Shown: one piece after another, positions 25,401-28,400 of the stretch | Layout of the letters: each line of letters begins with the position of its first letter | Numbering within the stretch: the stretch's first letter is position 1 | Program-made: the position numbers | NCBI RefSeq assembly: GCF_045037415.1 | Contig: NZ_CP173438.1 | Length of the DNA: 64,000 nt | Direction: 5' to 3' (one strand) | Origin: Escherichia coli | GTDB lineage: Bacteria > Pseudomonadota > Gammaproteobacteria > Enterobacterales > Enterobacteriaceae

Positions 25401-28400
25401 GTGATTACTGATGGCCACAAACGTGCGCTCATCGTGACTGACCGCTTCCTGTTCAACAATGGCTATGCTGATCAGATCACTTCCGTATTGAAAGCAGCAG
25501 GCGTTGAAACTGAAGTCTTCTTCGAAGTAGAAGCTGACCCGACCCTGAGCATCGTTCGTAAAGGTGCAGAACTGGCAAACTCCTTCAAACCAGACGTGAT
25601 TATCGCGCTGGGTGGTGGTTCCCCGATGGACGCTGCGAAGATCATGTGGGTTATGTACGAACATCCGGAAACTCACTTCGAAGAACTGGCGCTGCGCTTT
25701 ATGGATATCCGTAAACGTATCTACAAGTTCCCGAAAATGGGTGTGAAAGCGAAAATGATCGCTGTCACCACCACTTCTGGTACAGGTTCTGAAGTCACTC
25801 CGTTTGCGGTTGTAACTGACGACACTACTGGTCAGAAATATCCGCTGGCAGACTATGCACTGACCCCGGATATGGCGATTGTCGACGCCAACCTTGTTAT
25901 GGACATGCCGAAGTCCCTGTGTGCTTTCGGTGGTCTGGACGCAGTAACTCACGCCATGGAAGCTTATGTTTCTGTACTGGCATCTGAGTTCTCTGATGGT
26001 CAGGCTCTGCAGGCACTGAAACTACTGAAAGAATATCTGCCAGCGTCCTACCACGAAGGGTCTAAAAATCCGGTAGCGCGTGAACGTGTTCACAGTGCAG
26101 CGACTATCGCGGGTATCGCGTTTGCGAACGCCTTCCTGGGTGTATGTCACTCAATGGCGCACAAACTGGGTTCCCAGTTCCATATTCCGCACGGTCTGGC
26201 AAACGCCCTGCTGATTTGTAACGTTATTCGCTACAACGCGAATGACAACCCGACCAAGCAGACTGCATTCAGCCAGTATGACCGTCCGCAGGCTCGCCGT
26301 CGTTATGCTGAAATTGCTGACCACCTGGGTCTGAGCGCACCGGGCGACCGTACTGCTGCTAAGATCGAGAAACTGCTGGCATGGCTGGAAACACTGAAAG
26401 CTGAACTGGGTATTCCGAAATCTATCCGTGAAGCTGGCGTTCAGGAAGCAGACTTCCTGGCGAACGTGGATAAACTGTCTGAAGATGCATTCGATGACCA
26501 GTGCACCGGCGCTAACCCGCGTTACCCGCTGATCTCCGAGCTGAAACAGATTCTGCTGGATACTTACTACGGTCGTGATTATGTAGAAGGCGAAACTGCA
26601 GCGAAGAAAGAAGCCGCTCCGGCTAAAGCTGAGAAAAAAGCGAAAAAATCCGCTTAATCAGTAGCGCTGTCTGGCAACATAACGGCCCCTTCTGGGGTAA
26701 TGCCAGTCAGTTAAGGATCAGTTGACCGATCCAGTGGCTGTGTAAGAATCCGGAAACGCTCACTCGTTTCCGGATTTTTTTATGCTCATTGGACAGGCCC
26801 TTGATTTGGTATCCCGTTACGATTCTCTGCGTAACCCACTGACTTCTCTGGGGGATTACCTCGACCCCGAACTCATCTCTCGTTGCCTTGCCGAATCAGG
26901 TACTGTAACGCTACGCAAGCGCCGTCTTCCCCTCGAAATGATGGTCTGGTGTATTGTTGGCATGGCGCTTGAGCGTAAAGAACCTCTTCACCAGATTGTG
27001 AATCGCCTGGATATCATGCTGCCGGGCAATCGCCCCTTCGTTGCCCCCAGTGCCGTTATTCAGACCCGCCAGCGTCTGGGAATTGAGGCTGTCCGCCGCG
27101 TGTTCACGAAAACAGCGCAGCTCTGGCATAACACCACGCCGCATCCGCACTGGTGCGGCCTGACCCTGCTGGCCATCGATGGTGTGTTCTGGCGCACACC
27201 GGATACACCAGAGAACGATGCAGCCTTCCCCCGCCAGACACATGCCGGGAACCCGGCGCTCTACCTGCAGGTCAAAATGGTCTGCCAGATGGAACTGACC
27301 AGCCATCTGCTGACGGCTGCAGCCTTCGGCACGATGAAGAACAGCGAAAATGAGCTTGCTGAGCAACTTATAGAACAAACCGGCGATAACACCCTGACGT
27401 TAATGGATAAAGGTTATTACTCACTGGGACTGTTAAATACCTGGAGCCTGGCGGGAGAACACCGCCACTGGATGATCCCTCTCAGAAAGGGAGCGCAATA
27501 TGAAGAGATCAGAAAACTGGGTAAAGGCGATCATCTGGTGAAGCTGAACACCAGCCCGCAGGCACGAAAAAAGTGGCCGGGACTGGGAAATGAGGTGACA
27601 GTCCGCCTGCTGACCGTGACGCGCAAAGGAAAAGTCTGCCATCTGCTGACGTCGATGACGGACGCCATGCGCTTCCCCGGGACGTATACCGGAGCTGATG
27701 CGCGATCTTGCAAGTATGGGACAACTAGTGAAATTACCGACAAGAAGAGAAAGGGCCTTCCCGAGAGTGATAAAGGAGAGGCCCTGGAAATACTCCACAG
27801 CCCCGAAAAAGAGCCAGTCAGTTGCTTAACTGACTGGCATTACCCCTTCTGGGGCCGTTTTTTATTTTCCCAAAGCAACTTTTCCATAAACCGGCAGCAT
27901 TGTCCTTCATCATATTTGCGACGATGTATAACGCCTACACACAGCGATATTGTACTTTACAGGTTACAAGTCAATGTCGGTGTATAAGCGCTCTGTGAGG
28001 CGTATAACGGCGTTAAAAAACTGCCGAGAAGGGTGTATAGCCCGGAAGAAGTGCGTAAAACGAACTGACAGGGATAAAAGCGCCCTGCTCACCCTGTCAG
28101 TAAAGAAATTCTTATTAATCGTGGCGATGCCTTTCCTGAATAGCCGTTAATGAGCCGACTTCTAACGCCTCTTTATAGTGTTTACGGCATACAGAAACGT
28201 AGCGTTCATTACCACCAATAACCACCTGCTCACCTTCGTTATAAGGTCTGCCTGCTTGATCAAGACGCAGCACCATGCTTGCTTTACGGCCACAAAAACA
28301 GATGGTTTTTAATTCAACCAGTTTGTCGGACCATGCCAGTAAGTATTGACTGCCAATAAATAATTCACCTCGAAAATCGGTACGTAGACCATAACAAAGT

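Follow-up and report, generated by a model that had tools for sequence, protein, structure and literature searches.

In IS10, IS50 and other insertion sequences (ISs), the transposase-proximal end encodes a hairpin that can form only when transcription enters from outside, and that blocks either the progress or the translation of such transcripts. Structures of this kind at IS ends are reportedly a form of protection against read-through. For IS4, the target consensus is said to be AAA-N20-TTT. A literature search returned nothing relevant on the AAAN20TTT consensus, on the 3' UTR or terminator of adhE, or on adhE, tdk and IS4 together, and insZ, which occupies the position equivalent to our locus in E. 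coli K-12, was found in inventory tables only.

Members of the IS4 subgroup show a striking specificity for their target arms, generate target duplications of 10-13 bp and have an end consensus of the form -AATR (PMC2266710; consensus in its Table 1). Elements that seek out hairpin-forming sequences include IS1397, ISKpn1 and ISRm22, the last a member of the IS4 family, which target extragenic palindromes (PMC1525189). In the ST131 lineage of E. coli, the median number of IS4 copies is one per genome (bioRxiv 10.1101/680777). Here we compare these systems with an IS4 copy located immediately downstream of adhE.

An IS4 copy in the adhE terminator

The window, a 64-kb stretch of E. coli DNA that was analyzed as a whole, contains adhE at 23982-26657 on the plus strand (an 891-aa ORF, annotated as adhE in the identical region of SK1144) and the convergent tdk at 28115-28732 on the minus strand (ORF and annotation). 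Between them, at 26698-27842, lies a copy of IS4 with an internal deletion of 281 bp, which measures 1145 bp instead of 1426 bp and whose transposase sense is that of adhE (plus strand). In a blastn comparison with K-12 IS4, window positions 26698-27680 aligned to IS4 positions 1-983 at 98.1% identity, and 27669-27842 aligned to IS4 positions 1253-1426 at 97.1%. A first-pass annotation of this DNA had described an IS4-type remnant in the adhE terminator hairpin, a description borne out by blastn, the terminal repeats and the target duplication. Its term "IS4-like" named the right family and understated the match, as the element is IS4 itself at 97-98% DNA identity. The alignment to full-length IS4 that it had proposed as a check confirmed the family and a broken transposase frame, and pointed neither to another IS family nor to an intact frame. 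The element is already known and annotated: RefSeq labels it "IS4 family transposase, frameshifted" in identical genomes, and PGAP, the NCBI annotation pipeline, gives its status as pseudogene. It is an ordinary inactivated IS4 copy and, as had been anticipated, expected rather than novel.

The ends of the element agree with those of the IS4 subgroup. The 12-bp target duplication reported for this site was recovered as CCCCTTCTGGGG at 26686-26697 and 27843-27854. In the former adhE terminator, the sequence of the left copy formed the loop and the inner part of the stem; after the right copy come CCGTT, which was the outer half of the stem on its 3' side, and then the T-run (27843-27868 in all). 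This sequence is present exactly twice within the 64-kb window, with 0 occurrences expected by chance, and its length falls inside the subgroup range. The terminal inverted repeats of 18 bp were also found to be perfect, as claimed (18/18 matches between ends); a search for TAATGCCAGTCAGTTAAG located it in the 64-kb window only at 26698-26715 (plus strand) and 27825-27842 (minus strand), against 0.05 expected occurrences, and both ends have the -AATR form. Close to the right end, at 27813-27838 on the minus strand, an inward-facing, terminator-like hairpin, GCCAGTCAGTT-AAGC-AACTGACTGGC followed by TCTTTTT, folds at -32.6 kcal/mol (z = -5.9). A motif scan also picked out a promoter-like TTGACC-16-AAGAAT at 26722-26749 (plus strand), a weak candidate for the transposase promoter that is not significant alone (1 found, 1.4 expected). 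Its -10 element overlaps the 5' arm of a hairpin at 26744-26781 that is considered below.

Joining the two flanks of the element yields AACGGCCCC-TTCT-GGGGCCGTT plus a T-run, a 9-bp stem that folds at -18.6 kcal/mol (z = -4.0). The same sequence exists intact as an unoccupied site, for example in O145:H28 RM12581, and the natural empty site folds at -23.7 kcal/mol. Folding and natural empty sites therefore confirm the perfect rho-independent terminator that had been proposed from the joined flanks. In the window, this original adhE terminator is split and no longer constitutes an intrinsic terminator. The stem had been described as cut to 4 bp on each side of the element; this is accurate for the right half-hairpin (4 pairs, -7.5 kcal/mol, z = +0.5), but the left half retains four G-C pairs plus one G.U pair and, aided by flanking pairing, folds at -13.3 kcal/mol. 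An Rfam scan of positions 26300-28300 at E <= 1 detected no known RNA family. The adhE 3' UTR now runs into the IS4 copy, which starts 41 bp past the adhE stop codon.

The transposase frame begins at 26782 (plus strand), and its first ~300 InsG codons, up to 27680, are 96.4% identical to InsG residues 2-310 by tblastn. This part encodes a complete Nterm_IS4 domain (Pfam PF13006) and the initial part of the DDE domain (Pfam PF01609, DDE_Tnp_1), which covers profile positions 3-130 of 200 versus 3-200 in InsG. The frame breaks at MRFPG, and the InsG C-terminus (...SQSVA*) resumes in a reading frame shifted by +1 from that of the N-terminal part, where 52 codons at 27674-27829 (plus strand) match InsG residues 397-448 at 96.2%. 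The open frame from 26782 itself runs on out of frame, leaves the IS and extends to 27987, for a length of 401 aa. The first-pass annotation had put the out-of-frame deletion at about 280 bp; it is confirmed, with a length of 281 bp. Alignment to other IS4 copies places its junction at 27669-27680 (plus strand), where a single copy of the direct repeat GCGCTTCCCCGG survives. The repeats that bound the deletion, GCGCTTC(C/A)CCGG, match at 12/12 positions in the full-length copy of 20Y000092 and at 11/12 in K-12 IS4. The earlier placement of the deletion at a short direct repeat was correct; its extent was not, as the repeat spans 11-12 bp and not merely the 5 bp of CCCGG. Slippage or recombination between these repeats would explain the loss.

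The segment removed includes catalytic motifs of the protein. In InsG, the Y-x2-R-x3-E-x6-K motif lies within LYSHRWEIELGYREIK, immediately past the left breakpoint, which separates FPG from GEMGDLYSHRWEIE; this YREK stretch falls in the deleted DNA. With its frame shifted and its catalytic glutamate and YREK motif removed, the transposase is dead. Alleles that differ by 10-21 SNPs share the 281-bp deletion, and just 3 SNPs separate one of them from the full-length copy of 20Y000092, a distribution that implies either recurrent deletion or recombination. As a candidate for the progenitor form, the 20Y000092 element agrees with ours in site, orientation, duplication length (12 bp) and diagnostic SNPs, but it is an intact 1426 bp, differs at 16 of the 1145 common positions and carries the 12-bp repeats, identical to each other, at either end of the segment that ours has lost.

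Occupants of the site across E. coli

To describe IS4 targets we compiled a profile from 18 left junctions in other bacteria, outside the adhE locus. Among these, A accounts for 72-83% at positions -16 to -18, G+C for 61-83% at positions -15 to -12, and G is found at position -1 in 15 of the 18. AAA is present in 13/18 junctions, compared with 11.6% of control positions (Fisher p = 4e-9). In Kosakonia, where right flanks were sought in order to rebuild whole targets, the draft contigs end within IS4 and contain left junctions only; the profile covers the left side of the target. The unoccupied adhE site, AAA-CGG-CCCCTTCTGGGG, is exactly in register with this profile; the adhE terminator thus has the sequence signature of an IS4 target, comprising an A-run, a G+C-rich arm and G at -1. 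The window itself has AA, not AAA, its A-run being 1 bp shorter.

The state of the site was counted across 5426 complete E. coli genomes. It is empty in 2186, carries IS4 in the window orientation in 1137, and carries an intact, inverted IS4 with an 11-bp duplication in 190; ISZ, the K-12 element, occupies it in approximately 1900 (1876 records at >=99% identity, 1994 genomes at >=80% coverage). Strains EC958 and Nissle 1917 are among the carriers of the IS4 copy, and O157:H7 has the empty site. The inverted copies, exemplified by WB61 and strain 190, lie in the same target hairpin as the window copy but retain all 1426 bp, are flanked by the 11-bp duplication and differ from K-12 IS4 by 0-2 SNPs, a closeness that identifies them as a recent separate insertion. 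We also considered an origin of the WB61 copy by a flip of the forward copy between the palindromic duplications. We rejected this on three grounds: TTCT is retained in both loops, the duplication measures 11 bp, and in sequence the copy is near-identical to K-12 IS4, not to the B2-type copy.

The first-pass annotation had taken the element to correspond to the insZ pseudogene of K-12. The position is indeed the same, but the K-12 occupant, ISZ (insZ, b4573), is a different IS4-subgroup element. Alignment to insZ, proposed as an identity check, left the interior unaligned: in blastn against the K-12 locus only window positions 26600-26732 and 27825 onward matched, so that the alignable part of the two elements is limited to ~35 bp at the left and to the right inverted repeat. 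ISZ resembles the window copy in lying in the same terminator hairpin and orientation, in having been inactivated through loss of internal DNA between short repeats, and in a hairpin plus T-run before the start codon. It differs in its ends (CAATGCC...GGCATTG), its 10-bp duplication as opposed to 12 bp, and its own 423-bp deletion as opposed to 281 bp. In protein sequence, identity to InsG is 31% for the ISZ remnant and 38% for the transposase of a full-length relative. An interpretation of ISZ as IS4 ends around foreign DNA was rejected, as plasmid pWL1467 carries an ISZ-type element of full length whose 445-aa transposase is intact, and as the conserved left end recurs in a Photorhabdus relative. 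Given the unaligned interior, the 31-38% protein identity, the differing ends and the 10-bp duplication, the window IS4 and K-12 ISZ are independent insertions into one hot spot. Orientation, duplication lengths and the 38% protein identity together argue against descent of all occupied alleles from one insertion.

The opposite interpretation, that our element is a diverged allele of the same ancient insertion as ISZ, can draw on the shared intergenic site 40-41 bp past the adhE stop codon, the shared transposase orientation and a left end of ~35 bp that is 94-97% identical. The last of these loses its force because a 64%-identical Photorhabdus relative also has its left 40 bp identical to IS4, which makes the conserved left end a subgroup trait and not evidence of common descent at the locus. 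As blastn leaves ~936 bp of interior unaligned, the right inverted repeat differs at 4/18 positions, and termini, duplication length and deletion are separate in each element, we consider a shared insertion refuted in practice, with next to no probability remaining to it. A remnant that is still mobile, non-autonomous and open to movement in trans by a full-length IS4 would be compatible with the two perfect 18-bp inverted repeats and the retained subterminal sequences. However, searches with the deletion junction gave one match per genome in 568 genomes and, in a second search, in 123, with no sign of amplification; exceptions are one genome with two places and one plasmid match in each search, and the junction matches listed all fall under a single IS4 pseudogene annotation. 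We accordingly regard continued mobility as improbable. Still harder to credit is selection for the 401-aa truncated frame as a domesticated protein, such as a transposition inhibitor or regulator. Its first 299 codons are free of stops in all five adhE-site alleles examined, the Nterm_IS4 domain, a DNA-binding N-terminus, is complete, and the allele is fixed in hundreds of genomes. Yet pN/pS among adhE-site alleles is 0.6-1.6, which fits neutral drift and gives no indication of purifying selection on the frame at these small counts; the tail is out-of-frame read-through into flanking DNA, ST131-type carriers have no other IS4 copy to regulate, and PGAP calls the gene a pseudogene. A protein-level role is therefore very improbable, and we retain the view of the element as an inert IS4 remnant.

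The 3' end of adhE transcripts

Directly before the transposase ATG, at 26744-26781 on the plus strand (47-84 nt from the left end of the element), IS4 carries a leader hairpin with a 15-bp stem, the loop CTCACT and a T-run. This candidate substitute for the adhE terminator was identified by folding (-24 kcal/mol, z = -5.0). A consensus terminator scan of the plus strand did not flag it, hence our reliance on folding; we read the miss as a consequence of maximal stem extension, which absorbs part of the T-run. A hairpin and T-run reaching up to the start codon are found in three IS4-subgroup elements, namely IS4, the Photorhabdus relative and ISZ. In MG1655, Term-seq places a 3' end at 1295324 (-) with a score of 100225 (PMC7815308 Supplementary file 1). 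This end lies 82 nt inside ISZ, just past the ISZ hairpin and U-run, and 122 nt beyond the adhE stop codon. By analogy, the IS4 hairpin is the probable end of adhE mRNA in the window, at about 26780 within the element; the 3' end mapped in vivo is that of the positional equivalent in K-12 ISZ, which is a different element.

Transcripts might instead stop at a residual half-hairpin of 4-5 bp, or run through the element to the right-hand T-run. The left half still folds at -13.3 kcal/mol with its flanking pairing, and the right half keeps the original T-run. The left half has lost its T-run, however, the right half is no stabler than shuffled sequence (z = +0.5), the far stronger IS4 hairpin and U-run stand between them, and the strong 3' end in K-12 coincides with an IS-borne hairpin. 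We consider these other stop points unlikely, and termination at the IS4 hairpin remains our preferred model.

We are highly confident in the following history for the locus as a whole. IS4 transposed into the stem-loop of the intrinsic terminator 3' of adhE, duplicating its central 12 bp, and 281 bp were later lost, probably when two direct repeats of 11-12 bp recombined or allowed slippage. The frame shift and the loss of the catalytic glutamate and YREK motif turned the element into an immobile, fixed pseudogene, passed vertically in lineages that include ST131. The leader hairpin, which would normally shield the transposase gene from outside transcription, most likely now ends adhE mRNA near 26780, lengthening the adhE 3' UTR to roughly 125 nt and leaving adhE function intact.

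More tentatively, and with doubts that outweigh our confidence, we speculate that IS4-subgroup elements are trapped at the adhE terminator throughout the species, the site being filled in ~60% of genomes by at least three independent insertions. The occupants would decay by recurrent short-repeat deletion, whereas the leader hairpin would be retained because it now serves as the working adhE terminator, with a longer 3' UTR. If true, the host would have recruited a piece of a defunct transposon as regulatory sequence of its own. The locus would also provide a natural example of a tolerated insertion, in which a terminator-preferring element with inward-facing terminators at both ends replaces the terminator it destroyed; such self-replacement may explain the ~60% site occupancy. 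For annotation the stake is small, as this is a known IS4 pseudogene and the sole IS4 of ST131-type genomes. The locus should not be equated with K-12 insZ, as primers, read mappers and pangenome tools would misjoin unrelated sequences. Its four allele states (empty, IS4 forward, IS4 inverted and ISZ), together with the deletion-junction variants CATG/CATA, C/A and GG/AG, offer cheap lineage markers.

Comparison with described elements

The closest described element is the insG copy of IS4 in K-12 (1426 bp), to which the window copy is 97-98% identical in DNA across all retained sequence. Both have 18-bp terminal inverted repeats, a duplication length inside the known range, Nterm_IS4 and DDE_Tnp_1 domains, and a leader hairpin ahead of the start codon. 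Unlike K-12 IS4, the window copy lacks 281 bp (IS4 positions 984-1264 or equivalent), is frame-shifted and is without the E/YREK motif. Its left inverted repeat also reads AG at positions 8-9, where K-12 has GA, and it is this difference that makes the two repeats of the window copy perfectly complementary. An isoform of IS4 would have a length of ~1426 bp and a single intact transposase ORF, neither of which applies here. On the basis of its 1145-bp length, its 281-bp deletion and its frameshift, the window element is a defective derivative of IS4 and not a functional member.

Beyond IS4, the locus resembles IS1397, ISKpn1 and ISRm22 in that insertion occurred into a specific class of hairpin-forming intergenic sequence, but differs in the target, which for our IS4 copy was an intrinsic terminator bearing A- and T-runs and not a REP element. 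With the read-through protection of IS10 and IS50 it shares a hairpin at the transposase-proximal end; that the IS4 hairpin would play a similar role is suggested by its structure and, by analogy, by the 3' end mapped in K-12 ISZ.

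A defective IS4 copy in the adhE terminator

The element in the stem-loop of the former adhE terminator (26698-27842, 1145 bp) is real, was correctly described and is already annotated as a defective IS4, appearing in RefSeq as a frameshifted IS4 family transposase. To this annotation we add a correction regarding insZ, a census of an insertion hot spot and a likely substitute terminator. In blastn against full-length K-12 IS4 (insG copy, 1426 bp), window positions 26698-27680 match IS4 1-983 (98.1% identity) and 27669-27842 match IS4 1253-1426 (97.1%). Judged by this alignment, the element, which the first-pass annotation called IS4-like, is IS4 itself, 281 bp short and with a broken transposase frame.

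Two copies of a 12-mer target duplication, CCCCTTCTGGGG, bracket the element (26686-26697 and 27843-27854); these are the only two in 64 kb, where none is expected by chance. Directly inside them lie perfect 18-bp terminal inverted repeats, TAATGCCAGTCAGTTAAG (26698-26715 and 27825-27842), found nowhere else in the window. Joining the flanks in silico (26698-27854 removed) restores AACGGCCCC-TTCT-GGGGCCGTT plus a T-run, which folds at -18.6 kcal/mol (z = -4). The reconstructed terminator is genuine, as the same hairpin stands unbroken in 2186 of 5426 complete E. coli genomes; folded on the adhE strand, this natural empty-site hairpin reaches -23.7 kcal/mol. The residual half-hairpins in the window retain only CCCC/GGGG pairing, to which the left one adds a single G.U pair; the right one folds no more stably than shuffled sequence. 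The duplication, the inverted repeats, the terminator in the joined flanks and its reduction to 4 bp of stem per side had all been proposed in the first-pass annotation, and each holds.

The two blastn alignments share GCGCTTCCCCGG (27669-27680); K-12 IS4 reads GCGCTTCCCCGG at the left deletion end-point and GCGCTTCACCGG at the right one. In strain 20Y000092, which has a full-length IS4 at the same site, the 12-mer is perfect at both end-points, indicating that the window deletion is of the classic type in which sequence between two short direct repeats is lost. The microhomology-mediated deletion of the first-pass annotation fits this reading, although the repeat, given there as CCCGG, was understated. 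Its out-of-frame deletion of about 280 bp is borne out (281 bp is not a multiple of three), as is the frame change of the C-terminal residues. From the ATG at 26782 the frame tracks InsG, the K-12 IS4 transposase, at 96.4% identity up to MRFPG, where it departs from the InsG frame; the final 52 codons of InsG lie in the +1 frame (27674-27829). GEMGDLYSHRWEIELGYREIK, the start of the deleted segment, contains the Y-2-R-3-E-6-K signature (defined in PMC2266710) and the DDE glutamate, and among Pfam domains Nterm_IS4 is complete while the DDE_Tnp_1 match stops at profile position 130 of 200. The transposase is catalytically dead. The truncated ORF appears to drift neutrally (pN/pS 0.6-1.6 among adhE-site alleles). 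The broken frame (26782-27987) is stop-free within the element and crosses the right inverted repeat and duplication into the flank, so that read-through yields a 401-aa chimeric ORF.

Occupancy of the site and history of the deletion

Junction-specific searches of the 5426 genomes identified four allele classes that cover nearly all of them: an empty site with an intact terminator (2186 genomes), a forward IS4 oriented as in the window (1137), an inverted IS4 (190) and K-12-type ISZ (1876 records with identity of at least 99%; 1994 genomes with coverage of at least 80%). In WB61 and strain 190 the inverted IS4 is intact, lies within 0-2 SNPs of K-12 IS4 and has an 11-bp duplication; it stems from a separate event that was recent. 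The IS4 of PT62, by comparison, is an old copy that is full-length, forward and doubly frameshifted, also with an 11-bp duplication. The adhE terminator is therefore an insertion hot spot, with at least three and probably four independent insertions.

The window-type deletion junction occurs once in each of 568 genomes, a one-SNP variant in 123 (including UPEC 26-1, Nissle 1917 and 83972), and two further variants in strains 8178 and AH19E045. Deleted alleles are 10-21 SNPs apart over 1145 bp, and the intact 20Y000092 copy, the only IS4 in its genome, is just 3 SNPs from UPEC 26-1. Either the same 281-bp deletion arose more than once, which an 11-12-bp repeat makes plausible, or recombination carried it between backgrounds. 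Both junction searches returned one match on a plasmid-labelled record, and one genome had two matching places. Mobilised copies could account for these matches, as could artefacts of assembly.

Small differences also mark the flanks. The outer A-run (26678-26685) reads ATAACGG in the window lineage versus ATAAACGG in other alleles, and the outer T-run (27855-27868) reads TTTTTTATTTT versus TTTTTTGTTTT in the closest relatives. UPEC 26-1 and 20Y000092 have CCCCAGAAGGGG as the left duplication copy versus CCCCTTCTGGGG on the right (compare window 26690-26693). Their left 4-nt loop is the reverse complement of the usual one, which looks like hairpin-loop inversion or a template switch within a 4-bp inverted repeat.

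Eighteen IS4 left junctions, from Kosakonia oryziphila, Photorhabdus khanii and one K-12-like contig, show A at 72-83% at positions -16 to -18, G+C at 61-83% at -15 to -12 and G at -1 in 15; AAA occupies the -16 to -18 zone in 13, versus 11.6% of control positions (p = 4e-9). Several left flanks resemble terminator hairpins. The IS4 target consensus of Mayaux et al. in 1984 is reportedly AAA-N20-TTT. In agreement with this spacing, the empty adhE site reads AAA-CGG-[CCCCTTCTGGGG]-CCGTT-TTT and the K-12 resident IS4 site, in the same register, AAA-CAC-[CAGAACCAAGAT]-GCCTA-TTT. At least 16 contigs of the Kosakonia oryziphila REICA_142 draft terminate in an IS4 left end that matches the E. coli IS4 exactly, pointing to a large expansion outside Escherichia. 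A 265-bp contig of Methylobacterium mesophilicum NBRC 15688 joins the IS4 left end to the exact K-12 resident-site flank (…ACAAACACCAGAACCAAGAT) and is best explained as E. coli DNA contaminating the assembly.

A likely substitute terminator for adhE

On the E. coli chromosome, the element follows adhE (23982-26657, plus strand) and precedes the convergent tdk (28115-28732, minus strand), hns and galU. With 3 kb flanks, it is 100% identical to genomes of the ST131 type and their relatives, SK1144 and MNCRE44 among them, and EC958 carries the same deletion junction. MNCRE44 (ST131; NZ_CP010876.1 1414690-1419622) has, besides the IS4 remnant, an IS1 inside tdk, and its thymidine kinase is annotated as two pieces.

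The IS4 leader forms a plus-strand hairpin with a 15-bp stem (26744-26779; -24 kcal/mol, z = -5) that runs into a T-run ending at the transposase ATG (26782). A hairpin and T-run stand at the equivalent place in ISZ and in a Photorhabdus relative, whose stem differs in sequence and keeps its pairing. Curated Term-seq of MG1655 (Adams et al. 2021; PMC7815308 Supplementary file 1) includes a 3' end at 1295324 (-), score 100225, located 82 nt into ISZ and 122 nt past the adhE stop. Because it directly follows the ISZ hairpin and TTTCT, the K-12 adhE transcript ends at an IS-borne hairpin. By analogy, the adhE transcript in the window strain should end near 26780, at the IS4 hairpin, which is likely a substitute adhE terminator. 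A resembling hairpin and T-run faces inward from the right end (27813-27838, minus strand); adhE transcription would meet this one in the 190 inverted-IS4 genomes. An element that favours terminators and brings its own at both ends may be a close to neutral insertion, which would fit its persistence.

Just past the tdk stop, a minus-strand hairpin, CTGACAGGG...CCCTGTCAG followed by TTCGTTTTAC (~28050-28101), matches the K-12 Term-seq 3' end at 1294198 (+) near the tdk stop codon (PMC7815308 Supplementary file 1), indicating that tdk has its own terminator, independent of the adhE hairpin.

Comparison with K-12 ISZ

The first-pass annotation matched the element to the position of the K-12 insZ pseudogene. 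The position is indeed the same, 40 bp after adhE, but the element is a different one. In the alignment of the window with the K-12 locus, matching sequence stops at 26732 and resumes at 27825, which takes in both flanks, ~35 bp at the left end of the element and its right inverted repeat. The ISZ interior encodes a remnant just 31% identical to InsG. A full-length ISZ-type element on plasmid pWL1467 encodes an undisrupted transposase of 445 aa that shares 38% identity with InsG; relative to this element K-12 ISZ has lost 423 bp, and its junction shows a 14-bp overlap (positions 2427-3406 of the compared K-12 stretch versus 367-1794 of the pWL1467 stretch). The intact ISZ-type element occurs at 155 plasmid places. 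K-12 ISZ lacks the catalytic C-terminal part of its transposase, a decay parallel to that of the window IS4 copy. Its ends, CAATGCC...GGCATTG, are flanked by a 10-bp duplication, CCCTTCTGGG, in contrast to 12 bp for the window IS4, consistent with the variable first base and 10-13-bp duplications of the IS4 subgroup (PMC2266710). The Photorhabdus relative is 64% identical to IS4 in its interior yet matches 40/40 at the left end, so the conserved left end is a subgroup trait. ISZ has been catalogued as a separate, inactive IS4-like element of K-12 (PMC5009759, PMC3032704), and ISZ and the window IS4 are different elements that inserted independently into one hairpin.
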